From assembly GCA_963727775.1 (NCBI GenBank), contig CAVSHB010000001.1, forward strand, positions 1,344,001 to 1,408,000: a DNA stretch of 64,000 nt. Direction: 5' to 3'. The DNA is from an uncultured Nitrospiraceae bacterium (GTDB taxonomy: Bacteria; Nitrospirota; Thermodesulfovibrionia; Thermodesulfovibrionales; SM23-35). A program made the translations under genes and the position numbers. Below are positions 13,621 to 30,293 of this stretch, one piece after another. Every line of letters starts with the position of its first letter. The first letter of the stretch is position 1. The notes beneath the pieces were generated by a model, which did not search any database, was not told the origin of the DNA, and worked only from the letters and a program-made list of their open reading frames with translations.

Positions 13621-14065
13621 AAAATCCATAGTACTTTTGTTCCTTTTAATAGCCGTGCCGGTAATTATATATTTTCTATGGCCCTCTGATGAAAGCAGGA
13701 TAAAGAAACTCTTCAGGGAAGGATCGGTAGCGCTAGAAAAAAAAGACCTCGATGCGGTGATGTCAAAAGTGTCATTCAATTACCGCGATGAATATGGCTT
13801 TACATATCTTTATATAAAAGAAACGATGAAACATCTTTTTATGAAGATGAGCGACATTAAAATCGAATATGAAAATCTGCATATAAACATAGCCGACAAA
13901 ACTGCTACAGCGGACATGGACGTGAGAATTATAGCGACTATTGGAAATGATACGGGGTATATACTCGGAGATTTGCCAAAGCCGGTCCACCTGAAGTTTA
14001 CGCTCGAAAAAGAGAGAACAAAATGGCTTGTGACAAAAACCGATGGGCTACCTTTTAATTTTTAG
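13613..14065 (+). CDS. Hypothetical membrane-anchored protein (possibly NTF2-like fold)
   Basis: ORF with an N-terminal hydrophobic helix; probable TTG start overlapping the bioA end. Confidence 0.65.
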   Translation: MSKKSIVLLFLLIAVPVIIYFLWPSDESRIKKLFREGSVALEKKDLDAVMSKVSFNYRDEYGFTYLYIKETMKHLFMKMSDIKIEYENLHINIADKTATADMDVRIIATIGNDTGYILGDLPKPVHLKFTLEKERTKWLVTKTDGLPFNF

Positions 14066-14090
14066 CAAAGGAATCGTATAATATTCGGAT

Positions 14091-14177
14091 GCCGAAGTGG
14101 CGGAACTGGCAGACGCGCTAGGTTCAGGGTCTAGTGGTCGAAAGGCCGTGCGGGTTCGAGTCCCGCCTTCGGCACCA
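14091..14177 (+). tRNA. tRNA-Leu (anticodon CAG)
   Basis: GCCGAAG/CTTCGGC acceptor stem, anticodon arm CTAGG-TTCAGGG-TCTAG, long variable arm, GTTCGAG T-loop, encoded CCA. Confidence 0.97.
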
Positions 14178-14648
14178 AATAAAGTATTAGATATCAATAT
14201 GTTACGAATGTATACCTCTATATATGCCGTCCGCAAATCTTCATCGATACCTGCAACACTTCTTCTTATAAATACTTTATGGATTTGGGTAGAGAGCCAT
14301 ATTCACCTGATCACGCGCGTAGGCGAAACCGCAACTCACGAAGACTTCGCCCCGAAGCATGCATTGGCACCGGGATCGAATGAGGAAGAAATCTCTGTGT
14401 ACCTGAATCTCGACTCCACCTGGACACCATTGGTATTTTCATTAACTAAGAAGTATGCGGGCAACACTTCTTCCTTGTTTACACCACACTAATTTAAATA
14501 TCCTTACCCTGTTTCTTTCCTTTTATACTCCTCGGAATGGGAAAACAGTCCTGACGCCCTATATCACACGTGTGTAACAATCCCGCATTAGAGGCAGATT
14601 TTATCCAGGAATGATTGAATCCACTCTGAGACGTACTTTTCCTCTTAG

Positions 14649-16298
14649 CCCACATAATTCATAAAATTTTGGCATATGAGATTATTGGTGGGTTTTTGAG
14701 TCAAACGAAGACAATAGAAGACTATTGCGAAGCAGTTTTATAGACGAGTCACGATCTGATCCCGTAAAATCAGACGGAGAAGGGCTTCGTGGCAGTTTTT
14801 AAGCGCACTTCACCATTGAGGACATTTCCTGTTGAAGTTTTTCCGTAAGAAAATGTTCAGGTCGTATCAGCAGCAAGCCGATGATATACTAATGCAAAGA
14901 TTTTCTTCCAGGGATAGCCACTGGCTAAGCGAAACCATACCCGTCGGGCTGTCTGGATTACCTGGGCTCCAATCTTCAGAAGCCTCAGCCTTAACTGCTG
15001 TATCTGCATTGAGGCAAATTCTGTTTTCTGAAGAGCTTCCCTGAGCCTCAGAACAAGCCAGTACGCCGCCATATGCAGGAAGAGTCTGAACTGGTTGGCA
15101 ACAAAGCGATGACAACTCAACCGGTCTGCCTTGAGCCCATTTTTAAACTCGTCAATCCGTACCTCACAGGTACCGCCACGCTCGGTGTAAAACTCATAGA
15201 GTTCTTTTGGTTCATAGGAGAGGTTGGTTACGACAAAACGACGGTTAGGTCCCTGTATCAGCCATTCAGCCTTCATGATAACCCGTCGCTCTTTCGGCCA
15301 ACTCTGCGCCTGATATAATCCCTCTGTAAACATCCTCTGTTTTTGTCCTGTTTCCGTATACTGCTTATGCGCTTTCTTGAGAATGGCTTCGATCATCCGC
15401 TCAAGCACATCATTACGGATCAGACCGATCATATATTTGAGACCCTCTTCTTCACAGTATTCATATAACTCTGGTACTGCAAATCCAGCATCGCCACGGA
15501 CGATGATCTCTGTTTTTGGAAACGCCTCCTTAAGTTTCGGAATGATCCGCTTGAGGATCGACACCGCTCCATAACTGGCATGCCGGTTACCAGCTCTGAG
15601 GGCCGCTGTTATCAGTTGCCCTGTGTCAGCATCGTAGATTACAAGCGGATGGTACATGTATTGGTCATAGTAGCCATGAAAGAACGTCAACTGCTGATTG
15701 CCGTATGTCGGATCGTCCGTCCCATCAAGGTCCAGAATAATCCTTTTTGGCTTTCTCTTCCGGTTCCGACGAATGTAAAGATTAATAAAATATTCTCCTA
15801 TCCTGTATAGATCGTTCCGGGTGATTGCGTTTTCCAAGCGTGACAAGGTGGGCTGTGAGCCAAGATCTTCATCGCTCAACTTCCGTCCACAGGCTGTCTT
15901 CAGTGCTGGATCTTTTCTTACTATGTTTGCATCGTTACAGTCCTCATACCCAGCAACGATTTGATATGTCCGCTGACGTAACAGTGTCTCCAGATTGTGA
16001 TCGGTGTAACGGTTGTCTCTTCGGTCTGTAATACATCCTGCCATCCCTGTTATCAACCGCAAAGCATTGTCTGCTTGCCTCACCAGCAACAAGCCCGAAT
16101 CAGAGGTTATCTCCCCTCCCTTAAAATCTACCGTTATTTTTTGCTTCCGTATGAATGAAAAGGTGAGCTGTTTTGTGATACACTCTGTCATATAGCCAAC
16201 CATCCTTTCTTTGGTTTTGAGCTCTCGTAAACTCAATAATACCAAAGGTCTTAGGATTGTTGGCTATTTTTTTAGGCAGAATTTATGAATAATCTGGG
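14649..16298 (-). mobile_element. IS1380-family insertion sequence
   Basis: Imperfect terminal inverted repeats cccacataattcataaa (from 14649) and tttatgaataatctggg (to 16298) flank a DDE transposase. Confidence 0.88.
14857..16191 (-). CDS. IS1380-family transposase
   Basis: FKGGEITSDSG, GYEDCND, SQPTLSRLEN, ILDLDGTDDPTYGNQQ, RGDAGF and RLSCHRFVANQFRL motifs. Confidence 0.95.
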   Translation of the reverse strand: MTECITKQLTFSFIRKQKITVDFKGGEITSDSGLLLVRQADNALRLITGMAGCITDRRDNRYTDHNLETLLRQRTYQIVAGYEDCNDANIVRKDPALKTACGRKLSDEDLGSQPTLSRLENAITRNDLYRIGEYFINLYIRRNRKRKPKRIILDLDGTDDPTYGNQQLTFFHGYYDQYMYHPLVIYDADTGQLITAALRAGNRHASYGAVSILKRIIPKLKEAFPKTEIIVRGDAGFAVPELYEYCEEEGLKYMIGLIRNDVLERMIEAILKKAHKQYTETGQKQRMFTEGLYQAQSWPKERRVIMKAEWLIQGPNRRFVVTNLSYEPKELYEFYTERGGTCEVRIDEFKNGLKADRLSCHRFVANQFRLFLHMAAYWLVLRLREALQKTEFASMQIQQLRLRLLKIGAQVIQTARRVWFRLASGYPWKKIFALVYHRLAADTT

Positions 16299-16374
16299 CT
16301 AAACGCTCGGCTATAGAAGCGCGGGAATCTTTCAAACCGAAATGAATAGCAACCTATTTTTACACCTATGCGAA

Positions 16375-16974
16375 TTACAATGGATCTATTTCCTTTTCAT
16401 CAAAGCTCACTCTAAAATCGTGGATGCCTTTATAAAACGTATATCCACTGACTCTGTCCCTCTGGTAAACCGGTGTGAAGTCCAGAATGTTTGTCTTTCC
16501 TTCAATTAGGTTAATATCAATCTCCTTCTGGACATTTTCTTCGGTCAAAACCAAACAAATTTTGTAACTCCCAGCCTGAAGTCTTATCCTTTTTTCGAGC
16601 AAATACTTTACACCTTCGCCACCTTCAGGATTTCTTTTGGAATCTACAATTCTCTGCTGAGTATCGGGTTTGCCCTTTGCCATCCAGGTAACATATTGCC
16701 CTCCGATATTAAAAATAAAGGGGTATTCAGACTTGCCACGAAGGGACTGCTTCGACTCAAAGATGTAGTATCCTGCGCGAGGGGTTTTGATATTCGCCTT
16801 TATCAGAAGGTCTGCAAAACCCTCGTGAATAGGTTCCCCCGGCTTGATTTCTGCAAAGACGTCAGCTCTCGCGCCTTGACATTTACTGTAAATCTCCTTT
16901 GACGTGGTGCAGCACCCTGCAAGTGCAAATGCAAGAACCGCTGCACAAATAATTCCGGCCTCAAGTGTTCTCAT
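16375..16974 (-). CDS. Hypothetical lipoprotein
   Basis: Lipobox LAGC after a hydrophobic stretch; AAGGAG RBS; last gene of the metal ABC operon. Confidence 0.7.
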   Translation of the reverse strand: MRTLEAGIICAAVLAFALAGCCTTSKEIYSKCQGARADVFAEIKPGEPIHEGFADLLIKANIKTPRAGYYIFESKQSLRGKSEYPFIFNIGGQYVTWMAKGKPDTQQRIVDSKRNPEGGEGVKYLLEKRIRLQAGSYKICLVLTEENVQKEIDINLIEGKTNILDFTPVYQRDRVSGYTFYKGIHDFRVSFDEKEIDPL

Positions 16975-17010
16975 GAGAATGCTCCTTTGGTAAAGTTTGG
17001 TCCTTATCAT

Positions 17011-17901
17011 TTAACTCTTATGAGGGTGTCGTGAACCTCCGGGGAGAAGCCTGGCGACAATCCATGCTATTGCGTAAAGCACGCCGAGGAGGACGACATC
17101 CGTAGGGCCGACGGGGAAATCATATTGGTAAGCGATCCAAAAGCCGAAAAACGCGATCGCACCACCGACTAGCGAGGCCAACATAGTGAACTGGCGCATA
17201 TTGTGCGCAAACAGGTGAGCCATCAGCGCAGGGATAAGCAAAAATCCGAATGCGATAAGCGGGCCGACGCTGAGCACCGCCATCGAGACCGTTAGACCGA
17301 TAAGTATATAGAGCAGCACGTCCCAAAAAATAACGTTCTTGTGAAGTATAATCGCCATCTCGCGGTCGAACGAGACCAAGAGCAACTCCTTGTGGAACAG
17401 TGCAAGAGCCGCAAGTACCAGAGCAAGCGCTGCCGCCGTCAGCACGAGATCGAAATTCGAGATGGTGATGACCTCCCCTTTCAGCATATCGAGCCAACCG
17501 ATTTCGCCGTAGGGGTTCTTTGACAGCAGCAAAATGCCCAATGCGGCGGCCACTACGTATGCAGTGCCGAGCCGGCCTTCGGGTTGTCCGCGACCTTGTC
17601 GCTCCATAAACGCCAACGCCAGAATCGCGGTAAGCGAGAAGGTGATAGATCCGGCAAAGGCGAGCGCGTGAGCGCTGTGTGAACCATGATCTGCCAGATT
17701 GAATCCGAGCCACATGGGAAGCGAGAGCGCGATAGCGACACCCGTCGAAGAAATCTGGGGCAGTGCCACTCCCATGAATACCAGCCGGCGCATCACGAGA
17801 AACACACCGACGAGCGGGCAAGCGAAGCCGATGAGCACGCTGGTGTAGATCGAGTTCCTGAGGAGAAAATCCGGCGAGAGAATCTGATAAAGCGTTTCCA
17901 T
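17011..17901 (-). CDS. Zn/Mn-type metal ABC transporter permease (ZnuB-like)
   Basis: Multi-TM protein with GVFLVMRR, SFDREMA and LLIPA; adjacent to an ATPase and a solute-binding protein. Confidence 0.88.
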   Translation of the reverse strand: METLYQILSPDFLLRNSIYTSVLIGFACPLVGVFLVMRRLVFMGVALPQISSTGVAIALSLPMWLGFNLADHGSHSAHALAFAGSITFSLTAILALAFMERQGRGQPEGRLGTAYVVAAALGILLLSKNPYGEIGWLDMLKGEVITISNFDLVLTAAALALVLAALALFHKELLLVSFDREMAIILHKNVIFWDVLLYILIGLTVSMAVLSVGPLIAFGFLLIPALMAHLFAHNMRQFTMLASLVGGAIAFFGFWIAYQYDFPVGPTDVVLLGVLYAIAWIVARLLPGGSRHPHKS

Positions 17902-17902
17902 A

Positions 17903-18616
17903 TCAGTCGATCCTCCCTTCAAACATTTCGGCTATCCGTTCGGCTGTAAGCAGTTCGTTCGTGGTGCCGCATAGCACTTTGCCCTCGTGAAGCCATATGA
18001 CTTGCTCGGCGCCGCGTCGCGCCGCCGCAAAGTCGTGAGTGACGAGCAAGACCGTGATCTTCCTTTCCTTGCGAATCTGCGAGATGAACTCCATCACCGC
18101 ATGCGTCGCATTACGGTCCACACCCGCAGTGGGCTCGTCCAGCACCAGTACATCGGGGCGCGTGGTCAGAGCGCGAGCGATGAGCACGCGCTGTTTCTGG
18201 CCCCCGGAGAGTTCGGCAAAACGCTGGCGGGCAAACTCCTCAGCGCCCGACGCACGCAGGCATTCATACGTGAATGCGCGTTCGACAGGCGGGACAAAAT
18301 GCCCTGCGCGCACGCGTCCATATACGCCCATAAGGGCAACCTCGAACGCAGTCAGCAGATAAATCGAATCGAATTGAATGGATTGGGGTACGTACCCGAA
18401 TACAAGTGGTGCGCCCGCCGATGAGGTATCTATGCGGCCGCCTACCGGTGGAAGCAGTCCAAGCACCGTCTTGAGCAGGGTCGATTTGCCCGAACCGTTT
18501 GCACCGAGAATGGCTGTGAAACTGCCCCGTGCAATAGATAGAGAAATGCCGGATAGCACAGCCTGGTTGTTGTAGCCAATACTTAGGTTGTCCAGTATCA
18601 TAAGTGTTTCATTCAT
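17903..18616 (-). CDS. Metal ABC transporter ATPase (ZnuC-like)
   Basis: GANGSGKST, GYVPQ, LSGGQKQR, LDEPTAGVD and VTHD motifs; start taken at MNETL. Confidence 0.92.
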   Translation of the reverse strand: MNETLMILDNLSIGYNNQAVLSGISLSIARGSFTAILGANGSGKSTLLKTVLGLLPPVGGRIDTSSAGAPLVFGYVPQSIQFDSIYLLTAFEVALMGVYGRVRAGHFVPPVERAFTYECLRASGAEEFARQRFAELSGGQKQRVLIARALTTRPDVLVLDEPTAGVDRNATHAVMEFISQIRKERKITVLLVTHDFAAARRGAEQVIWLHEGKVLCGTTNELLTAERIAEMFEGRID

Positions 18617-18669
18617 AGTCTGTTGTGTGTGTCCGCCCGATATTTCAGGCGGACACGTTCTCCTTGTCT

Positions 18670-19602
18670 TTATTTCCTCGACTGGACGGCGGTAACCATC
18701 GTGTGAACAATATAGTCCATCATCTTGATGTACGTTTCCGTGTGTGGCACGCCGCCCGGCATGATGGGTAACGTTATCATGGTTGCACCGGTTTGCTCCG
18801 CAATGCGTTTCGGAACTTTCTCTGGGAACTGCGGCTCGCGCACAACAATAGGCACATACTGGGCTTTCATGGCGGCAGTCAGTTCCTCGATGTGACGTGC
18901 TGTCGGATCGATGCCCGGCCTCAGCTCGATCGTGCCGAAATAGTGCATGCCGAAGCGCTCTGCGAAGTATGGCCAATGCTCATGATAGGACACGAACTTA
19001 GTGCCCTTGAGCGGTTTGACTTCCTTCTCCCACTCGGCGATCTTGGCATTGAGCTTGGCGAGATACGCATCGCGGTTGTGTGTGAATTGCGCCTTGTCCT
19101 GTGGTGCGAACTCTACGAGCGCATTATAGATATTCTTAATCGCAGTCTTCGCCAATACCGGATCGAGCATGTAGTGCGGGTTACCGTAGGGGTGAACATC
19201 GCCGGCGGAGTGCTCGGTTGACTTAGGCACATCACGTGGGAAGATGCCTCTGGAGCAGTCCACGTAGCCGGACCTGCCTACCTGGATGCGCGGATTCTTG
19301 CTCGCCTCCAGCAACGCGGGCAGGAAGGCGTGTTCGCAATCAAACCCCACCAGGATCATCAGGTCGGCCCTGTTCATCATGGGCACGAAGCTGGGTTTCA
19401 TCGGCACGCCGTGCGTATCTTCAACGCCGGTAGCCAGGCTGTGGACCTCGACCAAATCCCCACCAACGGCGCGCGTAAAGTCTGCGAGATCGGTGAGTGT
19501 CGTTACAACACGGATTTTGGCCGCATGAGCCGGCATCACACCTATACAAAATACCCCGGCCAGAAAGATGATCGAGAACAAACAAAATAGTTTTGATTTC
19601 AT
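18670..19602 (-). CDS. Metal ABC solute-binding protein (ZnuA/TroA family)
   Basis: Signal peptide; VVTT, DTHG, DVHPYGNPHY and YHEHW..F metal-site motifs. Confidence 0.9.
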   Translation of the reverse strand: MKSKLFCLFSIIFLAGVFCIGVMPAHAAKIRVVTTLTDLADFTRAVGGDLVEVHSLATGVEDTHGVPMKPSFVPMMNRADLMILVGFDCEHAFLPALLEASKNPRIQVGRSGYVDCSRGIFPRDVPKSTEHSAGDVHPYGNPHYMLDPVLAKTAIKNIYNALVEFAPQDKAQFTHNRDAYLAKLNAKIAEWEKEVKPLKGTKFVSYHEHWPYFAERFGMHYFGTIELRPGIDPTARHIEELTAAMKAQYVPIVVREPQFPEKVPKRIAEQTGATMITLPIMPGGVPHTETYIKMMDYIVHTMVTAVQSRK

Positions 19603-19625
19603 ATTGACATTCATCCTTTCCATAT

Positions 19626-21110
19626 TCAGCGTTGCTGCCATCCATGCGAGTGTGAGCCGATGATCCACGCCCATTGCAGGTAAACGGCATTATCGGAGCG
19701 CAGACCGGATGCGACTGCTACGGCATTGCGGTCGGTGTATGTATATTGAAGCCGCAGTTGGTTCCAGTGGCTGAGCGCCCAGGTGATAAACGGAGAATAT
19801 TCGTAAGTCTTGGCTTTGTTGTCCTGGGCATCCTCCACAAAGCCAAACAAGAAGCCGGTTGACCACTGCCTGTGGAACTTGTAATTGAGATACGAGTAAA
19901 GGCCTAAGGAGCCGACAGACAGGCTGGACAGGGCGCTGCCCGAGGGATCCGTCATGTCATAACGGTTGCTGCTGTGAAGCACTTCAGTACCCCAGGTAAG
20001 GCTCTGGAACTGATTGTTACGGAGCGGCTTCCAACTGAGCGCCAGGTCTGCTCCTACCAGACGGCGCTCGCGTTCGGTGAACGTGCTGCCGGCTACCGTA
20101 GGAAACAGAGGATTAACACCGCCTGGGTCCGACCACTGTCCGGCCGTCTTTGGATTCCAGAGGCCTGAAACGCCGGATTCGAGTGAGATATCTGGTGTCA
20201 GATCGAAATATGTGGACAAGCGTCCAAAGTAATTCCAGCCGCTTAAATGACGGAATTGGCCAACATCGTTAGGTGGGTTGTCGCCTCCGAACTGGTTGCC
20301 AACGCCCACTGTCAGGTTGATATAATGCTCGACAGGCACCAACCAGTTGACCTGTATGCCGTCAGTCCTCGATTCGCCGCCTATGTATTGGGCGAGCACG
20401 AGTGGACGGTTCACGAAAGGCAGCTCATGATCGTGGATGTATGACAGCCGGCCGAACTCACCAAAGAACCGGCCCGCCTTCACAGTGAGGTTCCCAGGCA
20501 GCGACTCAGTCTGGAGCGCTGCCTCTTCGATACCAAAAGTCGACTCTCCGGTGTGGGCATCGACTGATGCGTTGGCCACTACATAGGCCTTCGCAAACGG
20601 GTCTACAGAAGCGGCCGCGTTTAGTTCCACGGAACGTTGGAATGCGTCGAACCCGCCGGGCCGGTCACTTCCCGTCTGCGCCGATCCCCTTCCGCGATAC
20701 GAGAAGAGCGTCTCACCCACGAGGCCGATAGAAGGATTGAAAACGCTCGGGACGGTCTTTGTCTGCGCCTCGGCCACCTGATCCACCTTCTCTTTCAACT
20801 CCTGTACCTGCTGCTGTATCTGCCCGGCCGCCAGCGGCGTCTCATTGACAGAGGCACTCTCGGTCGCTGCAGAAGGTTGGGTCTGTCTGACTTCAGCTTT
20901 CAATTCTTCTATCAACTTCCGTTGCTCAGCAATGGTTTGCTCCTGTTTTCTCAGGATTTCTTGAAGTCCTCTTATTTCCTTGATAGTTTGCTCTTGCTTC
21001 TTGAGGGTTTTCTCAAGAGCTTTTACCCGGTCTTCCAAGGTTTCAGCGAATACGCCTGTTGAAAACAATGACAAGATAAATAGCGTGATAAACATGCTCA
21101 TGATTTTCAT
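19626..21110 (-). CDS. Outer-membrane beta-barrel/porin of the type found with metal ABC operons
   Basis: Signal peptide, coiled coil, FNPSIG, SVDPF, IEEA, FGRL..IHDHELPFVNRP; C-terminal IGSHSHGW. Confidence 0.8.
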   Translation of the reverse strand: MKIMSMFITLFILSLFSTGVFAETLEDRVKALEKTLKKQEQTIKEIRGLQEILRKQEQTIAEQRKLIEELKAEVRQTQPSAATESASVNETPLAAGQIQQQVQELKEKVDQVAEAQTKTVPSVFNPSIGLVGETLFSYRGRGSAQTGSDRPGGFDAFQRSVELNAAASVDPFAKAYVVANASVDAHTGESTFGIEEAALQTESLPGNLTVKAGRFFGEFGRLSYIHDHELPFVNRPLVLAQYIGGESRTDGIQVNWLVPVEHYINLTVGVGNQFGGDNPPNDVGQFRHLSGWNYFGRLSTYFDLTPDISLESGVSGLWNPKTAGQWSDPGGVNPLFPTVAGSTFTERERRLVGADLALSWKPLRNNQFQSLTWGTEVLHSSNRYDMTDPSGSALSSLSVGSLGLYSYLNYKFHRQWSTGFLFGFVEDAQDNKAKTYEYSPFITWALSHWNQLRLQYTYTDRNAVAVASGLRSDNAVYLQWAWIIGSHSHGWQQR

Positions 21111-21209
21111 GATGGGACCTCCACCTTTCAGTTCTTACAATGAAAATGCACACGCAAATGGCTTGCACTTGACGCGTGACAATAAAATTGAATGTAGTAT
21201 TGTAAGAAC

Positions 21210-21518
21210 TTAAGCGGGAGGCGCCCGGCAGGTTAGGAGAGTAAGTCGTATGCAGTCATAAAGAAACGGCTTTGTCGGTACTTCATAATTAGAAACGGTC
21301 TGATGAATTGCAAGAGAAAAACTATTGATGCTTGCAGGAGAAAAGTGATGACCGGCTGCGCAAACAGGGCAATCGTGGTGGTCGATGTCGTTATCATGAT
21401 GATAGTGAAAAGCCGTTGCTAAGGTGGCGAAAAGGAAAAGGATTAAAAAGAGAAAGGTTAGTTTCCCTGTCTTTCGAGTACGGCCGTTTTCTAAGCGCAT
21501 TTTTCGAATCATCAGCAT
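21210..21518 (-). CDS. DUF2946-like leader peptide (TM, His/CxxC, C-terminal RAPP)
   Basis: Hydrophobic helix, HYHHDNDIDHHDCPVC, ends in RAPPA-stop; directly upstream of the porin gene. Confidence 0.8.
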   Translation of the reverse strand: MLMIRKMRLENGRTRKTGKLTFLFLILFLFATLATAFHYHHDNDIDHHDCPVCAAGHHFSPASINSFSLAIHQTVSNYEVPTKPFLYDCIRLTLLTCRAPPA

Positions 21519-21543
21519 CGTTTATAAATATAGAACAATTTAT

Positions 21544-21571
21544 ATTATGAACTTTTTACTCTTCATGTCAA
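21544..21571 (-). promoter_or_regulatory. Putative sigma70 promoter for the leader-porin-ABC operon
   Basis: Minus strand TTGACA-N16-CATAAT. Confidence 0.5.
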
Positions 21572-21596
21572 GAAAGCAAATACAAACATCTTCAAT

Positions 21597-22343
21597 TTAC
21601 TTATTTAAACGAAATGCCACCGGTACCAGTACCCATTCGTCAATCGGGGTCTCCCCTTGACGCGCTGGAACAAAGCGCCAGTTTTTTACGGCCTCAGCAG
21701 CGGCATTATCCAAAAGTTTGTAACCAGAGGAGCGGGATATATCAATTTTAACTGCTTTTCCTTCCCGGCTTACCAGCACCTTCAACGTCACTACTCCTTC
21801 CATTCCCATTCGTCTGGCCGAAGCAGGGTAGGCAGGTTTCGGATTGTTCAAATAGGCAGCACCAAACTGGGGAGGGATAACCGAAACAGTAGAAGTACTG
21901 GGTGAGACTTGAGGGTAGATTTGAACAGAGGGCTGGACGGTATTTGATGCCGCTTTATTGCCGGACGGCAAGCTTGTTTCAGGCACTGAAACAGTAGGCG
22001 TGGAGATGGACGGAGCGAGCGTCTCAACTTTGGGCTTAACCTCAGAGGTAGGCGGGCTCGTCGGTTGTTGTATTGGAGCGGGTGTTTGCGGCGGCGATTG
22101 GTGTATCGGCTTGGGCCTTGAAGGTATCGAAACAGCTGTGTGCTTGGCTGGCAACGGCAGCTCAATGAATTGCGCATCTATGGGTTCTAATGACTGGGAC
22201 TGCTCGGCTATCTGTCCCAGCAGTAGCCCGAATCCCCATAGCATCACTCCCCATATCAGTAGAGCCGTTAACAAAACCCAAGGCAGACGCTGCCAAGGGT
22301 TATCGATATCGGCAGATTGACGTGACAAAAAGTCTCTATTCAA
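21597..22343 (-). CDS. tonB: TonB energy transducer
   Basis: N-terminal TM, Pro-rich linker, C-terminal domain YPASARRMGMEG and SSG..LLD.AA..AV..WRF.PA. Confidence 0.9.
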   Translation of the reverse strand: MNRDFLSRQSADIDNPWQRLPWVLLTALLIWGVMLWGFGLLLGQIAEQSQSLEPIDAQFIELPLPAKHTAVSIPSRPKPIHQSPPQTPAPIQQPTSPPTSEVKPKVETLAPSISTPTVSVPETSLPSGNKAASNTVQPSVQIYPQVSPSTSTVSVIPPQFGAAYLNNPKPAYPASARRMGMEGVVTLKVLVSREGKAVKIDISRSSGYKLLDNAAAEAVKNWRFVPARQGETPIDEWVLVPVAFRLNK

Positions 22344-22740
22344 CGTACTTCACTGCAATCAGAAAATGTTCTGCTCCTGCATGGCGGGCCTCGAGCATGG
22401 CTCGTACCACCACTCCTTCCGGTGCTGCACTATCTGCAGCAACAATGATGTGACCATCCGAATCCTTTAACATGGGATGTAAAGTTCCGGCCAGAGCGTT
22501 AAGCGTCACAGGGGTGCTGTCTAATAAGATTGCGCTCTCCTTAGTCACAGTCAGTGTTACCGGGGTTCTGGCCTGCATCGGTGTAGCCTTGCCCTGTGGA
22601 AGATCAATGGGCAGGGAATGGAGTTTTTGCAAGGCAAGTGACGCAAGCATAAAGGTTGCCAGAAGGAAAAACATTACGTCAATCATAGGTATAATTTCTA
22701 TGCGCCCTCGACGGGACTGCCGGGACCTACGTAGTCTCAT
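22336..22740 (-). CDS. exbD: ExbD/TolR family protein
   Basis: IEIIPMIDVMFFLLATFM motif. Confidence 0.92.
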   Translation of the reverse strand: MRLRRSRQSRRGRIEIIPMIDVMFFLLATFMLASLALQKLHSLPIDLPQGKATPMQARTPVTLTVTKESAILLDSTPVTLNALAGTLHPMLKDSDGHIIVAADSAAPEGVVVRAMLEARHAGAEHFLIAVKYVE

Positions 22741-23386
22741 GACCACCTCCATTCTTTTCCTGATCCATTCGGATATGATCTACCAGTCGTGTACCAAGGC
22801 GTTCCATTTCATCCATAGTCCTGGATTGCAGGTGCGCAAAGAAGTTAAATGCAAACAGGGCAATAAGGGCAATGATAAGGCCAAGAGTGGTCGCTATTAG
22901 CGCTTGGGCCACTCCACCCGTTATTCCGGTTGGATTTACCAGCCCGGTGCCGCCAATCAACTTGAATGACTCCATCATGCCTATGATTGTCCCTACCAGA
23001 CCAAGCAGTGGCGCCGCAGTCACGATGGTCTCCAACACCCAGAGCCCCCTGTTTAAGGCCTTTTCTATCAACTGCGCCTCGTCTGCAGCACGAGACTCTA
23101 CCCACCAGGCAGGGTTAGCGCGGTTGTCCAGGATCACCTGGAAGAAACGTCTGAAGTAGTTTCCAGGCACAAAAGACTTTATCTGCTCGTCCAATTCTGT
23201 CCATGCAAAACTATAGGTCTCCACCAGTACGAGCAGCGAGGCAGACAGCTTGACATAACGCCTATATACGAACGCCTTATCTATGATAATAGTAAGGGCT
23301 ATAATCCCCAAAAGCAACAGCGGATACACCATCATACCGCCGAATTGCAGGGCCTTTAATGAATTAGAAAAATCGTGCATATTCAC
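22727..23386 (-). CDS. exbB: ExbB/TolQ/MotA proton channel
   Basis: APLLGLVGTIIGM and GVAQALIAT..GL motifs. Confidence 0.92.
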   Translation of the reverse strand: MNMHDFSNSLKALQFGGMMVYPLLLLGIIALTIIIDKAFVYRRYVKLSASLLVLVETYSFAWTELDEQIKSFVPGNYFRRFFQVILDNRANPAWWVESRAADEAQLIEKALNRGLWVLETIVTAAPLLGLVGTIIGMMESFKLIGGTGLVNPTGITGGVAQALIATTLGLIIALIALFAFNFFAHLQSRTMDEMERLGTRLVDHIRMDQEKNGGGHETT

Positions 23387-23424
23387 ACTCCTTCTTGAAT
23401 GAAATATATTTATCTTCCATGCGC

Positions 23425-25530
23425 CTAAAAGTAGTATATGACGCTTAGGCGAGCGGTAATCGGTTCTACCGGTTTAAAGTGTCTATCATTTACGCCCTGC
23501 AAGGGCTCCCCCGGCAGCCTGGAGGTATAATAATACGCAATGTCGCTGGCCTTGCTATTGAGTAAGTTCAACCCTTCCAATTCCATCGTCAAGTGCTTAG
23601 AGAATTTGTACCCTATTTGTGCTTCCACCAGGGTTGTGGCCCCTTCATGTTGGCTGTTGTCCTCTATAAGCGGGTACCCTCCAAGATAGCGCACCCTCAA
23701 GGATCCAAAATACGGACCTATATCATGTATTGATACACCCAGGGACCCAACACCTTGAACTGCGCCGGGTATATAATCTCCAACGACGCCGGGAACTTGC
23801 GGACCCGTAGAGCGGGCCTTGGTATATGCATAATCCAAGTCAATCGTTAACCAAGGGGTGGGGGTATAATAGTTGGCAAATTCAAATCCCGTCCGCAGGC
23901 TGGGACGGCCCGGCGAGGTCTCACCGCTATCTCCGTCCCACTGAAGTTCTGAGTCGAAATGCAACTGAAAAAATGTCAGTGAACTCTGAAGCTTTGGAAT
24001 GATAGCAGTGCGTGCGCCGACCTCATATCCCCTGGAACGTACCAACGGCGCAACTCGTTGATTCGGGCCCGCCGTTGGGTCGCTTATAGGAACCGAGGTG
24101 TCGATAGTGCTACGGGCGTCATTACTGTGAAAGCCCTCTCCCGAGTTGATATAGAACTCTGTCTTGGCCCAAGGACCGAATATCAAGCTTAACTTGGGAT
24201 TTACCATGCTGGCGGATGTTCTCCCCGAATTGGCGGTCACGCTTTTGTCGCTTATCTGCAAAAAGTCAACGCGGACACCAGCTTCGGTACGAAACTTTTC
24301 AAACCAATGGAAAGTGTTTTGAAAATACGCTGCTTCGCTGGATTCGACCACGTGGTCGTCCCGCCAAACAGTAAGAACTTGACGATCTTCAGTATGGTTA
24401 AGACCGACATGAATATTGTCATTTTGCAGTTGTATACCTACTTCATTCTCCACCTCATGTCCAAACCATTTGCCAGTCAAGGTATGGCTGGCGTTTAATG
24501 CGCTCATTGTTCTCTTGTCATGCTGTTCAAATTGATCCCCATGGATAGGGTCATCAAGAAAATAGGTGAAGTTTGAATATAACTCCATCGTCTTGTCGAT
24601 AAAATAGAGATTTGCTTTGGTAACGGAATTACCGGTAGTATGCTGCCAGGCCCCGGATAGACTGTAACGGCGAGTATAAGTGAAGTCACTTGGGTCAATA
24701 TAGCCGAAACGCGATATTAAACCCTCGGTTACTGCGCGTTCGGGAATCTGGTTAGTGGCTACCCCCTGGCTTGTATACGCCATTGCAGAGAAGGTAAAGC
24801 GGTCTTGCCCTTCAACTATAGTATAGCGCAACACTCCATTGACTTTTCGGAAGTCTGCGGTATTGGTCCACGGGCCATCGTTATGTATGTATTCCATAGC
24901 CCCGAGAAGGTTTCCTCCCAACAGCTTCATCGAGTCGGCAACAAGGCCGCGCTCATAACCCTGAAATCCCACGGTCGTCTTGGCCATCCCCTGATCCAGA
25001 GTATCTACATAGTTGATGTCAATGGCGCCTACAGAAGAGAAATCCCCGTACTCAGCATAGTAAGGCCCTTTTCTATATTGCATGTTGCTGATGAGTTCGG
25101 GTATCATGAAGTTCAAATCGGAATATCCCTGGCCATGCGCATTAGTGCGTTCATTGACTAACATGCCATCAACGGTAATCCGCAGGTCCGTACCGTGATC
25201 GAGATTAACACCCCTGAGAAAATATTGGTTGGCCTTTCCTTCTCCACTGTGCTGGGTCACGATCAGTCCCGGTGTTACTTCCAATAATTCGCCAATTCGG
25301 TTGTAAGGCCGCGATTGTACCTCCTCCCTCGGGACGGTCCCTTCATTTGCAGAGTCAGCTGTGCCGATCAGATTTTCGGTGGTATCAGTGACCACCACTT
25401 CCTGCAAAGTCTGGATACCGCCAGCGTTGGCCAATGAGACAAAAATCAAGCTAAGTAGCACCACGAATAATTTAGAACAGACTCGGGTCGTTCTCGGTGT
25501 GACATTAAATCGTGCGCGGGGTCTTCTCAT
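23425..25530 (-). CDS. TonB-dependent outer-membrane receptor (probably metal uptake)
   Basis: TonB box LQEVVVT, plug motif QHSGEGKANQYFLRG, C-terminal Phe; AGGAGG RBS. Confidence 0.9.
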   Translation of the reverse strand: MRRPRARFNVTPRTTRVCSKLFVVLLSLIFVSLANAGGIQTLQEVVVTDTTENLIGTADSANEGTVPREEVQSRPYNRIGELLEVTPGLIVTQHSGEGKANQYFLRGVNLDHGTDLRITVDGMLVNERTNAHGQGYSDLNFMIPELISNMQYRKGPYYAEYGDFSSVGAIDINYVDTLDQGMAKTTVGFQGYERGLVADSMKLLGGNLLGAMEYIHNDGPWTNTADFRKVNGVLRYTIVEGQDRFTFSAMAYTSQGVATNQIPERAVTEGLISRFGYIDPSDFTYTRRYSLSGAWQHTTGNSVTKANLYFIDKTMELYSNFTYFLDDPIHGDQFEQHDKRTMSALNASHTLTGKWFGHEVENEVGIQLQNDNIHVGLNHTEDRQVLTVWRDDHVVESSEAAYFQNTFHWFEKFRTEAGVRVDFLQISDKSVTANSGRTSASMVNPKLSLIFGPWAKTEFYINSGEGFHSNDARSTIDTSVPISDPTAGPNQRVAPLVRSRGYEVGARTAIIPKLQSSLTFFQLHFDSELQWDGDSGETSPGRPSLRTGFEFANYYTPTPWLTIDLDYAYTKARSTGPQVPGVVGDYIPGAVQGVGSLGVSIHDIGPYFGSLRVRYLGGYPLIEDNSQHEGATTLVEAQIGYKFSKHLTMELEGLNLLNSKASDIAYYYTSRLPGEPLQGVNDRHFKPVEPITARLSVIYYF

Positions 25531-25644
25531 AAAATCTCCTCCTGAAAAATAAAAAATAAAAAGCCACAAAGGCATTGTCTGCTATATATAATTCCTTCCA
25601 TATTGCCTCTCACAATTCATATTGAATGTTGCATTCGCCACTGT

Positions 25645-25845
25645 TCAACTGATCATCCTTTTGGCTTCTTCAAAGCGTCTGTTCAATCTTTTATGCTCCA
25701 TATAAAGCCTTACGAGTGTCCTTAACAATTCTTCATTACCAATAGAAGAGACCTTTTCCGCCCAGTCCATGTAAATCTTTGCGTGCTCGTTGTTATGCTC
25801 CGTCCAGTAATTGAGCAACCTTTTGAGTTTTTCCAGTTGTTCCAT
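25645..25845 (-). CDS. Small helical protein with a W..HN..HA..Y..WA motif (putative metal binding)
   Basis: GGAGG RBS, 66 aa, LLNYWTEHNNEHAKIYMDWAEK. Confidence 0.7.
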   Translation of the reverse strand: MEQLEKLKRLLNYWTEHNNEHAKIYMDWAEKVSSIGNEELLRTLVRLYMEHKRLNRRFEEAKRMIS

Positions 25846-25854
25846 GAGTCCTCC

Positions 25855-25908
25855 AAATAAAAAAGCCATGAAAGATCACCTTCGGGTGAAATGCCTTCAT
25901 GGCTTTTT
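25855..25908 (-). terminator. Intrinsic terminator/attenuator in the receptor operon leader (unit 2)
   Basis: mRNA AAAGCCAUGAAGG...CUUUCAUGGCUUUUUUAUUU immediately before the RBS. Confidence 0.75.
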
Positions 25909-25999
25909 CTGAAATGTTCTTTAAATGTTTTTTTGTTTCAGCCCTTCAGGGCTTTTGAATCTTCAGCAGCGCCTTTTCAAAAAGCCCTCTTTCCCGTCG

Positions 26000-26061
26000 A
26001 AAATAAAAAAACCCCGAAAGCTTTTTGACCTGCTGGTCATTTTTTAAGCCTTCGTGGCTTT
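26000..26061 (-). terminator. Intrinsic terminator/attenuator in the receptor operon leader (unit 1)
   Basis: mRNA AAAGCCACGAAGGCUU...AAGCUUUCGGGGUUUUUUUAUUUU. Confidence 0.7.
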
Positions 26062-26119
26062 AATTCCTGATATTTCTTATAAAACAGCTTAGACTCTGAA
26101 CTTCATGTTCGGATAATTT

Positions 26120-26149
26120 AACATACCCCAAAATACAGAAATCCGTCAA
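26120..26149 (-). promoter_or_regulatory. Putative sigma70 promoter driving the leader and receptor operon
   Basis: Minus strand TTGACG followed by TATGTT at about 18 nt spacing. Confidence 0.5.
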
Positions 26150-26235
26150 GCATTTTTTACAACCCTTCGCGGTAGCGTTGAGTCGTGCTACTCCACCACT
26201 CTAAGCATTTTCACTTAAATACCCATTACGTTTAT

Positions 26236-26493
26236 CTATTTGTGCTTGTGGATTTCTTTCGCGTGTCCGGGATGCTTATGTTCATGAGGTCCGTGTTTGC
26301 CCGCATGCTCATGATTGTGAACCTCGGCTTTGCCTTTATGGTCATGTTCATGGCTGTGCTTATGCGGGTGCTCGTGATCGTGCGCGTGGGAATGTTCATG
26401 ACTATGTTTCTCGTCCTTGTGAAGATGCTCGTGGTCGTGAGTATGAGCATGCTTATGCGCATGCTCATGTTTGTGTTCATGTTCACCTTTCAT
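26236..26493 (-). CDS. Histidine-rich small protein (33 His in 85 aa)
   Basis: AGGAGG RBS before ATG 26493; alternating HxHxH pattern. Confidence 0.8.
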   Translation of the reverse strand: MKGEHEHKHEHAHKHAHTHDHEHLHKDEKHSHEHSHAHDHEHPHKHSHEHDHKGKAEVHNHEHAGKHGPHEHKHPGHAKEIHKHK

Positions 26494-26608
26494 AATAAAT
26501 CCTCCTATCAGATTGGTTGATTATTTCTTAGAATCCTGATCCGTCTGACGATATGGCATGGTTCTCAGCGAAACATAGGCCCTCCTATACTCTTGAGGAA
26601 AAGGTCAT

Positions 26609-26803
26609 CTATACTGTAACTGCCTCCACACAGTCTTGCCTCCACAGGCAATTTAACTGATCACACTCATTAACAGAGTGAGTCGCAAAACAATCGGAAT
26701 TTCCCTCTGCCCTCTGTATGTCCCTGATCAATTTTGTCTTATTCATATTCCCAGCCTTGATGCCCATCCTCTTTGCTATTTCTTTAATTTTCTCTTTTTC
26801 CAT
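26609..26803 (-). CDS. Small SAP/Rho-N-like protein with four C-terminal Cys
   Basis: IKEIAKRMGIK..NMNK..LIR.IQRAEGN.DCF....CDQ.NCLWR.DC; GGAGG RBS. Confidence 0.75.
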   Translation of the reverse strand: MEKEKIKEIAKRMGIKAGNMNKTKLIRDIQRAEGNSDCFATHSVNECDQLNCLWRQDCVEAVTV

Positions 26804-27029
26804 AAGACATCCTCACCTCCTTTTTTCAGTCTATCACCAAAAAAGGTAATACACAAATTACCCAGTGAGCAAATTGTTATAGCCGTGCGCCGCCGAAATA
26901 CTTACGTGAATGGCCTACCCGATCGAATAATGGTCTTTTCTTGAACAACTGTCATTTATGCTGTAAGCTTTATATTATAGGAATTATAATGGTAACCCAT
27001 GAATGAGGGTCACCAATAGGAGGTACATA

Positions 27030-27149
27030 ATGGAAAAAGCGCAACACAAGAGTTTTAGCAAGCCGGATGAGATTCGTAAGTTTCCAAAGGGACGACTTGA
27101 AGTTGTAGTTGATTTTCAGGGTATGATCGATTACGCAAAAACGAAGTAG
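27030..27149 (+). pseudogene. Internally deleted cupin-family gene (N- and C-termini fused)
   Basis: AGGAGG RBS; 39-aa ORF MEKAQHKSFSKPDEIRKFPKGRLEVV-VDFQGMIDYAKTK resembles both ends of a small cupin family; recognised from memory. Confidence 0.6.
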
Positions 27150-27207
27150 ATTTTCCTTAGTGGTTTGTCAAAAAGGGTCTCGAGTGACAAGGGAGAATGG
27201 TTAAGTC

Positions 27208-28065
27208 ATGAAAAGAATTATTTTAATGATTACGATTGCGGTCTTTTTTTTATTAGGCACTGTAGTAGCGCATCAGGAGGATGTGGCGGGCAAGATCGGT
27301 ATAGTTGAAAAGAGGGGACAGCGAGTACCGCTTGACCTTACGTTTTCTGACGAAAACGGCAAGCCGGTGAAGTTGAGCAATATTGTAACGAAGCCTACCA
27401 TCCTTACTCTCGTCTATTATTCTTGTACTAATATCTGTCCCCAAATGCTGGGAGGGCTTGCCACTACCCTGGGCAGCATAAAACTCACGCCGGGCAAAGA
27501 TTATAACGTAGTGACGATTAGCTTCGATGAAGATGATACCCCGGCCATTGCGAAGAGTCAGAAGGTCAATTATATCAAGGCAACCGGCCTGTCTTTTCCG
27601 GAGGAGGCATGGAAGTTCCTAACCGGAAATAGAGAAAATATCGGGAGGATCACTGAAGCGGTCGGATTCAGTTTCCGAAGAGATGAGGAAACGGGATCTG
27701 TTGGATTCGCCTCAAGAAAAGTGTCACGCGGGTTCATCCATCCGTCAGTGCTGATCTTTCTGGCACCGGATGGCAAGATCACACAGTACGTTTATGTAGA
27801 TCGATCTCACTATGGGACGATGGCGCCGATTGCCTTTTTGCCTGTGGATATTACTACGGCGCTCATTAATGCCTCTCAGGGAAAGGTTTGGACCGGCTCA
27901 AAAAACCCGATAATCCTTTGTTTCCCCAATTTGTCTGAGCAGGAAGCTCGCTTCTACATGATTTTGGCAACCGTCGGGGCGGCGACACTCCTTTGCATAG
28001 TTGCTTTTTTCATTTACCTCAGGAAAACAAGCAGAGAAACGACGTCAAAAATAAATGAGAAATAG
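27208..28065 (+). CDS. SCO1/SenC family copper chaperone
   Basis: YYSCTNICP (CxxxC), ISFD..DTP, WKFLTG and a downstream His (FIHP); C-terminal TM. Confidence 0.88.
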   Translation: MKRIILMITIAVFFLLGTVVAHQEDVAGKIGIVEKRGQRVPLDLTFSDENGKPVKLSNIVTKPTILTLVYYSCTNICPQMLGGLATTLGSIKLTPGKDYNVVTISFDEDDTPAIAKSQKVNYIKATGLSFPEEAWKFLTGNRENIGRITEAVGFSFRRDEETGSVGFASRKVSRGFIHPSVLIFLAPDGKITQYVYVDRSHYGTMAPIAFLPVDITTALINASQGKVWTGSKNPIILCFPNLSEQEARFYMILATVGAATLLCIVAFFIYLRKTSRETTSKINEK

Positions 28066-28162
28066 ATGATGGTGTTCGATCACAAATCCTACCCGATGGG
28101 TACCTGGCATCCTGCCGAATCTTCAGTAAAAAGGGCTATGCAAATAGTCACCTCACCAGCAG

Positions 28163-29905
28163 CTACTGAACTTTTACCATGAAATCGAAGAGAAGCACCG
28201 TGCCCTGATGGTTCACTTGACTGAAGATCTTATAGACACCTTTGACCGGAAAAACCACGATGGACTCTATCTCCGGTCCGAATTTTTCTCCAGGCTCGGC
28301 GTGCATGTGCATATGATCCATATGAGTGTGAGACTCCCCGGGAATAACACCGTGAGCATGAATGAACTGCTTCAGGTCTGCAAGCACAATGGCGAGGTGC
28401 ATCGGAGCACCTAAATATGGACTTAGATCTGCCACAGGTTTCTTGTTAGACTTAATAAGATATCGGAGTCTTGTCTCCTTGCCCGCCTTGATGATATCAG
28501 GGGATATTTTTAGTGTGACATGATATGCTCCGAAATCTTTCTCCGTGGAGAAATCTAGCTTCGGCTCTCCCATTCTCAGCTGGCTGGAGACTTTAATATG
28601 TGCTGTTTTACTGTAAAGCCCGTCCGCCGTTGCGAAGTCGAGTCCAACTAAATATTCTCCAGCCTTCGGGAAAGTGAAACGTAGCGGGAACGTTGCCTTC
28701 TTCAGCATCTCATCGGTTACAGGGCCTATATCTTCAGGATGTATATGCGCAAAGACGTTTAGATCGCTGCCTATGACAATAGCGTGGAGAATTCTTTCAT
28801 GATGAACCGTGAGCCCTTCAAGCGGCTTTCCGTTTTGCCCTTCGATGTGAACTGTCATCTTTGCACGTGTTCCCGCCTTAATATCTGAGGGGCTTGTCTC
28901 AAGGTGTATGACAGGTTCAGGCCCTGTATTAGCATAATGCTCGTGTTGACCGCCCTCATTACTGGCATGATTCCCCATGGTCATAGCATGTTCGATGTGC
29001 ATAAAATGTCGTGCGGGTATATTATGTGTAAGCAAGCCGGCGCATAGAAACACTCCTGATATGATGATTGCCTCAACACGCGTCCTATGAAGAAACTTCA
29101 TGGCAAATGCCGATTCATCCTGACCGTGCTGCGGAGGAGCAATGTATCTAAAGGCAAGAAAAAGGAGCAGCGCAATCTTCGCGGAAAGCACTCTTCCATA
29201 AGGAGTTGTAAAGAGTAACCCGAAACTTCCGACTTCAACCCAGGCATTATAGAGTCCGGTGAAAACCAATAGGGACAATACAGGGCCGAATAAAACATAA
29301 AATCTGTCAGCAATACCGGATACAATAAGCTGTTGCCTGCTATCCTCCGCAATAGTAGAGGGTCGGAAAATGATTGCTATGGCTATGAGTGCCCCACCCC
29401 AGAGTGAAGAGGCCGTAAAATGAAGCCAATCCGAAAGCTCCATCAAACTCAAGTCACCTAAGTCCGCAGCGTGGCTCGTCGCGCTACGTGAAAAAGCGAT
29501 GGCTGCGGATGCGCATAGCAGAAAGACTGCGACTAAGCGGGAATTCAGATGCCGCCTGCCGACAAACCACACAATCAAAGCCAGTCCGAGTCCACCTGAC
29601 CGAACTATTCCGATTCTCCCGTAGTGTGTCTTTAACAAGACGGTGGATAGTACGGGAAAGATCGCTGCGATGCCAAGACCGCTCATCTCCATGGTACGCT
29701 GTATAAAATTGCTGATGCTGCTTATAACCAGCGCAATCAAACAGAGCATGAGCAATCGCCGTAGCCTGCCGACAAACGGCGGAGAAGTGTCTTCAGCAAC
29801 CTTTGAGTGTGCAGTCCAAAAAAGGCATAAGGCAACTCCAACCAAGGTTGTCAATGCCGTAATGTCTATAAATGTTACTATGCTATGCAAAACCGTTTGG
29901 ACCAT
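28163..29905 (-). CDS. CopD-family inner-membrane protein fused to a His-rich periplasmic domain
   Basis: SHAA, WLHF...LWGG, TGLYNAW and TTPYGRVL motifs; C-terminal repeats FAHIHP / FIHAHG. Confidence 0.82.
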   Translation of the reverse strand: MVQTVLHSIVTFIDITALTTLVGVALCLFWTAHSKVAEDTSPPFVGRLRRLLMLCLIALVISSISNFIQRTMEMSGLGIAAIFPVLSTVLLKTHYGRIGIVRSGGLGLALIVWFVGRRHLNSRLVAVFLLCASAAIAFSRSATSHAADLGDLSLMELSDWLHFTASSLWGGALIAIAIIFRPSTIAEDSRQQLIVSGIADRFYVLFGPVLSLLVFTGLYNAWVEVGSFGLLFTTPYGRVLSAKIALLLFLAFRYIAPPQHGQDESAFAMKFLHRTRVEAIIISGVFLCAGLLTHNIPARHFMHIEHAMTMGNHASNEGGQHEHYANTGPEPVIHLETSPSDIKAGTRAKMTVHIEGQNGKPLEGLTVHHERILHAIVIGSDLNVFAHIHPEDIGPVTDEMLKKATFPLRFTFPKAGEYLVGLDFATADGLYSKTAHIKVSSQLRMGEPKLDFSTEKDFGAYHVTLKISPDIIKAGKETRLRYLIKSNKKPVADLSPYLGAPMHLAIVLADLKQFIHAHGVIPGESHTHMDHMHMHAEPGEKFGPEIESIVVFPVKGVYKIFSQVNHQGTVLLFDFMVKVQ

Positions 29906-29915
29906 ACTGTTAACC

Positions 29916-30287
29916 TCATTTAATTACGAATGTATAATCGCCCATGGTACGGTGCCCATCCCTCGCTACGACGCTCCAAAACACATGATAGGTTCCTCCC
30001 GGCAGCGGCGGCAAGCTGACTTCGAGCAACGTTGAGTTGGACGGATCTACCCTTCCATTCCCTTTGTCTATTTTTTTCCCGCCTGCGTCTTGAACAGCAA
30101 TCGTGCTGAATACAGGTTCCAGATCGCCATCGAACCAGATACGGACAACAGATGGGGAACCGGAAACCGTTGCCCCCACCTTCGGGTCTGAATGGTCAGG
30201 AAAAACATGCCCATGAGACACTCCCGGAAACAGCAGGAACGCAAGAAAAAATAACGAGGCCATTGTCCTGAGCTTCATGACTTGCAT
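29916..30287 (-). CDS. copC: CopC periplasmic copper-binding protein
   Basis: Mature N-terminal His (GH.FP..SDP), WFDGDLEP.FS and WSVVARDGH.T.G.Y.F motifs. Confidence 0.9.
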   Translation of the reverse strand: MQVMKLRTMASLFFLAFLLFPGVSHGHVFPDHSDPKVGATVSGSPSVVRIWFDGDLEPVFSTIAVQDAGGKKIDKGNGRVDPSNSTLLEVSLPPLPGGTYHVFWSVVARDGHRTMGDYTFVIK

Positions 30288-30293
30288 TGTATA

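Follow-up and report, generated by a model that had tools for sequence, protein, structure and literature searches.

Within the window, the 64,000-nucleotide stretch of an uncultured Nitrospiraceae genome analysed here, the minus-strand leader ORF at 21210..21518 probably specifies an arrest peptide of the CruR/CutF type, which would control the porin gene that follows it, and probably an ABC importer as well, so that these are made at low metal. The leader is conserved, ends in a stall motif and has codons predicted to fold over the ribosome-binding site (RBS) of the porin gene, and is thus likely to be a metal-sensing switch like CruR and CutF.

The translated leader has a basic N-terminus, then a hydrophobic stretch, the motif HYHHDNDIDHHDCPVC and RAPPA-stop at its end. 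Translation and hydropathy thereby bear out the 102-amino-acid ORF with a transmembrane or signal helix described in an earlier note on this DNA. The hydrophobic signal/TM segment (residues 20–36; 21411..21461, minus strand), which ends in ATA and is presumably cleaved, reaches 2.25 in a Kyte-Doolittle 17-mer scan. The His/Cys cluster HYHHDNDIDHHDCPVC (residues 38–53; 21360..21407, minus strand), a metal-site candidate from its conservation among leaders, holds the CxxC as C50–C53 and gives the overall pattern HxH..HHDCxxC, 44 residues, RAPPA-stop. The RAPP codons (residues 98–101; 21216..21227, minus strand), in which R, P and P are invariant, contain the CCUCC at 21217–21221 that is the predicted anti-Shine-Dalgarno (anti-SD). 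Among 39,650 frames of at least 40 amino acids in the host genome, 22 have a RAPP-like end, and the window leader alone of these has a CxxC.

The leader is the first gene of its operon. Its start is ambiguous, with candidate ATGs at 21518, 21512 and 21500, none having a Shine-Dalgarno (SD). A sigma-70-like promoter (TTGACA-16-CATAAT, 11/12 match) is predicted ahead of it at 21544..21571 on the minus strand, and comparable -35/-10 sequences lie upstream of the leader in the close relatives L098, L099, L100, L102 and L002. A palindrome, TATAAAT-N8-ATTTATA (21519–21540), spans the presumed transcription start; it is AT-rich and may be due to chance. The earlier note had taken an independent promoter within 21111–21209 as grounds against coupling, and the promoter scan found no minus-strand promoter-like site in this leader-porin gap.

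The next gene (19626..21110, minus strand) specifies a 494-residue porin with an N-terminal coiled coil and the C-terminal sequence HSHGWQQR, modelled with AlphaFold from an alignment (pLDDT 62); a single-sequence fold (pLDDT 30) was set aside. Its best Foldseek matches are OprP, chitoporin and OprO (E 3e-12 to 6e-11). The porin is assigned to its family by Foldseek alone, and the Porin_O_P model scored below its cut-off on the 494-residue protein. Three further minus-strand genes follow: a cluster A-I (ZnuA-family) binding protein (18670..19602; PF01297, 185 bits) with His64, His143, His207 and Met281; an ABC ATPase of approximate start (17903..18616; PF00005), on which the AztA, MntA and ZnuC models all fell below cut-off; and an ABC-3 (ZnuB-family) permease (17011..17904; PF00950, 138 bits). 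The binding protein gene follows that of the porin in 78 of 80 loci (the best 80 of 206), and the nearest named homologues of the operon are in Thermodesulfovibrionales/Nitrospirota and Syntrophales-type genomes. On the 3' side of the permease gene lies that of a probable 211-residue lipoprotein (16375–17010, minus strand), present in 6 related loci; the post-permease position is occupied in 21 other loci by an Lcl_C protein.

Conservation was followed in porin-encoding GTDB loci, the best 80 of 206 being taken, 3 of which come without upstream DNA. The earlier note had proposed that the RAPP motif be checked in orthologous loci; an intact R[AGS]PP leader precedes the porin gene in 73 of the 77 with upstream DNA, and the other four leaders are broken or variant (RASP plus a frameshift, RPPP plus a stop, RDPP, and one degenerate). 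These leader-porin loci span Nitrospirota, Desulfobacterota-type, Verrucomicrobiota and NC10 records. In this sample the stall motif is RAPP in 64, RSPP in 5 and RGPP in 2 of 71 leaders, the distance from CxxC to RAPP, 44 in the window leader, is 44–46 in 65/71, HxH occurs in 71 of the 72 leaders with a CxxC, the CxxC is missing from 2/74, and hydropathy is at least 1.8 in 72/73. In 33 diverse leaders two His, two Cys, the Arg and both Pro are invariant and nothing else is; the sequence of the CxxC-RAPP linker is unconserved. Gaps between leader and porin reach 259 nt among related loci. Among 100 relatives 10 matched the porin, one of them through the coiled coil only, and an upstream R[AG]PP leader was found in 9/9 full-porin loci examined. 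A leader profile search gave matches in 81 of the 301 genomes of a phylum sample; in 22 of the 26 top matches parsed the leader stands before this porin or a member of its sister clade, and in three before a TonB receptor.

Several departures from the type were seen. RPPP, KAPP and RDPP replace the usual stall motif in leaders that are typical in other respects (L056, L156, L157, L146, L147, L078). A single-Cys RAPP leader (HEHSDxDLCQW) heads TonB receptors in genomes of families f26/f29 (L150–L155, L158), with ZigA downstream in one locus and a MerC-domain gene in one. In L145, L159 and L160 a CxxC-RAPP leader with few His stands in front of genes for a CpXC protein or a histidine kinase. In L098 a leader 86% identical to that of the window is followed by a porin of the sister clade and a binding protein of the Asp type; leader and cargo can thus reassort, and the metal may not be set by the leader by itself.

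The closest precedents are two copper-responsive leaders. CruR (Bp2923) of Bordetella pertussis, a DUF2946/PF11162 protein, is reported to need RAPP for expression and CxxC for the copper response, with a CxxC-RAPP gap that matters and that is 45 ± 1–2 in CruR/DUF2946 (PMC9426467); toeprinting places its arrest at the point where the two Pro codons occupy the P and A sites (PMC12992588). The window leader shares with it, as described, the position as first gene of an uptake operon, the export signal, the CxxC, the spacer of about 45 residues, the C-terminal RAPP and the long gap to the next gene (PMC9426467). It differs in having a His cluster before the CxxC, in drawing no PF11162 score, in its cargo (a porin and a cluster A-I ABC system, whereas that of CruR is a TonB transporter and PepSY) and in the level of control, SD pairing being predicted here and Rho termination having been shown there (PMC9426467); copper, moreover, is not the first-choice metal here, its markers lying in 3/80 flanks (best 80 of 206).

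The earlier note had placed the leader in DUF2946. PF11162 (cut-off 23.7 bits) matched neither the leader protein nor anything in the host genome, but some relatives do score: among the matches listed (the best 150 of 256), 27 of 96 scanned reach E<=0.01 and 7 exceed the cut-off; E<=0.01 is also reached by 8/33 of a second leader set, and an Atlas cluster, at 0.94, has DUF2946 in 44% of its members. DUF2607 (PF10795) gave no match to the leader and, among the matches listed, two weak ones below cut-off in the 96 relatives. Since relatives bridge to DUF2946 though the leader itself is unscored, it is best called CruR/CutF-like.

CutF of Rhodobacter capsulatus offers the second likeness, that of an exported nascent sensor on which a stalled ribosome frees a stem-shielded SD (PMC9973294), a release that is predicted only in the present case. 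Peculiar to CutF, as reported, are its CxxxC, proline-rich tail, copper-induced stalling and detoxifying-oxidase cargo (PMC9973294; bioRxiv 10.1101/2025.02.05.636593), whereas the window leader has a CxxC, an importer as cargo, and the stall codons themselves as predicted anti-SD. The leader is likely to work like CutF, by SD release, with the logic of CruR, serving an importer. ApdA/ApdP and SecM share the RAPP/RAGP stalling motif and the release of an SD by a stalled ribosome, but in the accounts available they monitor secretion, head sec/yidC genes and are without a metal site.

The gap between leader and porin is bridged by an inverted repeat whose 5' arm is ATTGTAAGAACT (21199..21210, minus strand) and whose 3' arm is AGTTCTTACAAT (21130..21141, minus strand). 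As the earlier note had observed, this repeat of 12 bp is perfect, the arms being exact reverse complements, and 12 bp were reached in 0/500 shuffles of the 102-nt gap. The inner CACGC/GCGUG pairing that it pointed to is present in the minimum free energy (MFE) fold, as the hairpin CACGCG...GCGUG (21147..21181, minus strand), and also in a consensus fold of 9 close loci. Its placing of the arms needs one correction: the 3' arm does end 7 nt before the GGAGG, but the 5' arm takes in the last base of the leader stop and does not merely abut it. The MFE of the leader-porin region is -49.1 kcal/mol (z -4.9; 0/200 shuffles).

In this fold the helix extends outward past the 12 bp, GGG-C-GCCUCC (21217–21226) pairing with GGAGGU-CCC. 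The former comprises the Arg-Ala-Pro-Pro codons and the latter the porin SD region, so that the SD (GGAGG, 21118..21122, minus strand), sequestered in the predicted unoccupied fold, is predicted to be held directly by the Pro-Pro codons (CCUCC) of the leader, with a pairing probability of about 1.0 at the window locus. When a modelled ribosome footprint (P site -15 to +15 nt) was moved along the window mRNA, the cost of opening the RBS, about 17 (17.4) kcal/mol, fell to 7.4–8.2 only with the P site at the Pro codons of the motif; 8/12 bp of the stem then persist and the outer helix is lost. A ribosome stalled at RAPP would therefore open the porin RBS, as the earlier note had supposed, with conservation, CruR-like spacing and folding all favouring SD release; the putative switch, however, is not the 12-bp hairpin to which it was ascribed, which is not conserved and mostly persists under the modelled ribosome, but the Pro-codon/SD helix outside it.

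Among relatives the pairing varies. In 31 cluster representatives predicted SD pairing is highest at the Pro-Pro codons and almost nil along the 120 nt before them; of 72 loci (best 80 of 206), 41 have the SD paired with the Pro-Pro region at p>0.5. Under the modelled ribosome the SD is still paired at p>0.5 in 65/72 loci, with a drop of >0.3 in only 16; the mean gain in opening energy is 2.9 kcal/mol against 1.8 in shuffles (22/32, p 0.017, the kin not being independent). CCT serves as the first Pro codon in 24/32 clusters but makes up 45 of the 148 remaining Pro codons in leaders, a bias that is weaker in a second, partly overlapping phylum set (11/26); Pro codons being C-rich, part of the SD complementarity is forced. 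In pair counts on 9 close loci, for which the structure was taken from the window itself and helices 1–2 alone were read, the CCUCC/GGAGG helix is 87% paired. The 12-bp helix is 62% paired in the same counts, with 6 double changes, but a -3 slide scores alike. The perfect 12 bp occur in 1/74 loci (best 80 of 206), that of the window, 5–7 bp being typical, and as a peculiarity of this genome are to be seen as local reinforcement rather than as a conserved element. The hairpin covariation for which the earlier note had asked did not emerge: flanking the core helix it is at chance (16/57 against 14.5 permuted), and the long-range stems are missing from the RNAalifold consensus of the 9 close loci. 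The wobble base of the Ala codon and the base that follows GGAGG, tried as a covarying pair, likewise change together no more often than by chance. An Rfam scan of 14000–30000 gave a tRNA only and no riboswitch.

On these grounds a working scheme may be proposed. The signal segment would thread the nascent leader into Sec, bringing the His/Cys site to some 47–62 residues from the point of stalling. When metal is scarce the ribosome would stall on RAPP and cover the Pro-Pro codons, leaving the porin SD free, and the porin would be translated, as would probably the ABC importer. Metal bound at the His/Cys site would exert a pull on the nascent chain that ends the stall; termination would come two codons later and the outer helix would re-form, aided at the window locus by the 12-bp and inner stems, turning the importer off. 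SecM arrest can be released when zinc causes a small domain to fold, reportedly at 24–26 residues and inside the tunnel (PMC4571824); with 47–62 residues the action here would lie outside the tunnel, at or beyond the translocon. As CruR and CutF answer copper in opposite directions, the sign of the response is taken solely from the cargo being an importer.

Other readings of the locus were weighed against this scheme. In CruR itself the mRNA is protected from Rho as long as the ribosome stalls on it, and release by metal leads to termination, a mechanism demonstrated for an importer (PMC9426467). Were the same transcriptional polarity at work here, termination would fall before the porin and SD pairing would be secondary; the weak freeing of the SD by the modelled ribosome in many relatives, and gaps reaching 259 nt, accord with this. 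In the model of the window locus, however, the stall codons hold the whole SD and the ribosome lowers the cost of opening it by about 10 kcal/mol, and the first Pro codon is biased to CCT, so that polarity as the principal mechanism is unlikely, although it and SD release can act together. An inverted sign, in which metal prolongs the stall and turns the operon on for sequestration or tolerance, would suit the architecture shared with CutF, an export signal and an SD-shielding stem (PMC9973294; bioRxiv 10.1101/2025.02.05.636593), and the copCD genes 7 kb away; it is made improbable by a cargo that constitutes an import set (porin, cluster A-I binding protein, ATPase and ABC-3 permease), with the binding protein downstream in 78/80 loci (best 80 of 206).

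It could also be argued that the leader monitors secretion or redox state in the manner of SecM/ApdP, translocation or disulfide formation releasing the stall and the His/Cys motif being no metal sensor. RAPP leaders are reported before sec and dsb genes as well (PMC12992588), every downstream product here is exported, and some distant leaders stand ahead of genes for a CpXC protein or a histidine kinase; yet HxH and CxxC are invariant and at a fixed distance, and 22/26 of the parsed phylum-search leaders precede this porin and 3 TonB receptors, which leaves such a monitor a slim chance. Least credible of all is a constitutive periplasmic metal-binding peptide, with stems that serve only in mRNA processing or stability. 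The perfect 12-bp stem is indeed unconserved, as that reading would allow, but R-x-P-P is invariant beside the stop, the linker is unconserved but fixed in length, only one such ORF exists among the 39,650 frames of the host genome, and RAPP-type motifs are described as depleted from proteomes except at the ends of small exported uORFs (PMC12992588).

If the leader is the metal-responsive arrest peptide that we favour, zinc is the tentative first choice of metal, nickel or cobalt has a good though lesser claim, copper is a doubtful candidate and any other metal a still weaker one; that some metal other than copper is sensed by the arrest-peptide route seems, on balance, the better guess. The earlier note had spoken of a Zn/Mn-type ABC system plus porin. 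The import set stands, and the binding protein keeps three His as in Zn-type/ZnuA proteins. Mn-type cluster A-I proteins are described as having a His2-Glu-Asp site (PMC4242081), and this signature is absent, the third ligand being His in 78/78 covered (best 80 of 206). The label is also too narrow, in that the neighbourhood support for nickel in the clade exceeds that for zinc. The operon resembles ZnuABC/AztABC/TroABC in its PF01297/PF00950/PF00005 set and its three His ligands (PMC4242081; PMC8811889) but differs from them, as far as these sources describe them, in having Met rather than Asp/Glu at the fourth-ligand column, in NCBIfam equivalog scores that are all below cut-off, and in showing no Zur box. 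That column is Met in 70/73 covered (best 80 of 206 loci) and Asp in the sister clade. Aligned to Lmb, the Met falls one residue before the Glu, and a ligand role for Met281 is accordingly no more than a possibility; the nearby Asp62 or Glu208 might act instead. A Met281-type column was also seen in the distant Nitrospirota locus L154.

For zinc speak the family assignment and best PDB matches of the binding protein, the distant leader-receptor locus with ZigA, and published rows labelled 'zinc-regulated' (PMC12992588), together with the failure to find a Zur-like gene in the host genome (96.8% complete). The three Fur-family genes of this genome adjoin feoB and katG, and it holds a second, orphan ZnuA-type gene. 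Upstream of 69 leaders Zur and NikR boxes were at chance, and Fur boxes numbered 2 against 0.15 by chance. For nickel and cobalt speak the 5-kb flanks of the best 80 of 206 loci, which, with kin not independent, carry Ni/Co markers in 16/80 (TonB receptor 9, NikR 5, CbiM 3), Cu markers in 3/80 and ZigA in 0/80. The same TonB receptor lies some 2 kb upstream of the leader (23425–25575, minus strand), with exbB, exbD and tonB (21597–23386, minus strand) directly upstream. Its plasmid homologues (pHG1, pHCG3) stand beside nikR and hyp genes or near hoxN, in hydrogenase clusters, so that it is probably a nickel receptor; no minus-strand terminator-like site precedes the leader promoter, and read-through from the TonB genes is thus possible. 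Genes for three NiFe-hydrogenase large subunits and hypBDE occur in the host genome; NikR, NicO, HupE and CobW_C were not found in it. The proposition that it has no other nickel transporter was rejected, a separate CbiM/NikM gene being present. For copper speak the CruR precedent and the proximity of copCD (7 kb away) and SCO1.

The surroundings form a metal island: an SCO1/SenC gene with a porin-like, CopC and CopD set occupies 27208–31229, together with neighbouring genes. A very His-rich 85-residue protein (26236–26493, minus strand), which has no Pfam match, presumably resembles metal-storage peptides. The downstream edge of the island is marked by a tRNA gene and then a DDE_Tnp_1_4 transposase (14091–16245).

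The general idea is not new. Fujiwara et al. (EMBO J 2025) already show the pairing of leader and porin in their source data, where RAPP leaders stand before porins and 'zinc-regulated' outer-membrane proteins (PMC12992588); the likeness to the window porin is one of description, and their main text contains neither 'zinc' nor 'ABC transporter'. The 2023 survey proposed non-copper sensing for His-only clusters (PMC9973294), and in Caulobacter a zinc-regulated efflux operon is reported to be headed by a DUF2946 gene (PMC4176598). A literature search, covering the 2025 survey supplements in part, found no study testing such a leader-porin-importer operon, no zinc/porin uORF study and no paper on a His3-Met binding protein.

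In the sources consulted, copper is the only metal shown to act through leaders of the CruR/CutF class, and the surveys of 2023 and 2025 leave open both the part of further metals and where the pulling force comes from (PMC9973294; PMC12992588). For these the window locus is a compact test case, with one short leader, a defined importer and a strong SD switch, predicted at about 10 kcal/mol. A more daring and rather doubtful proposal is that of a nickel-sensing arrest peptide which, in place of a DNA-binding repressor, would read periplasmic metal during export and use its stall codons as anti-SD, the porin and the His3-Met cluster A-I ABC system amounting to a nickel importer of a novel type in anaerobic Nitrospirota/Desulfobacterota. 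If the metal is nickel, a substrate would be assigned both to a widespread, unnamed porin and to a clade of cluster A-I binding proteins with an unusual Met ligand.
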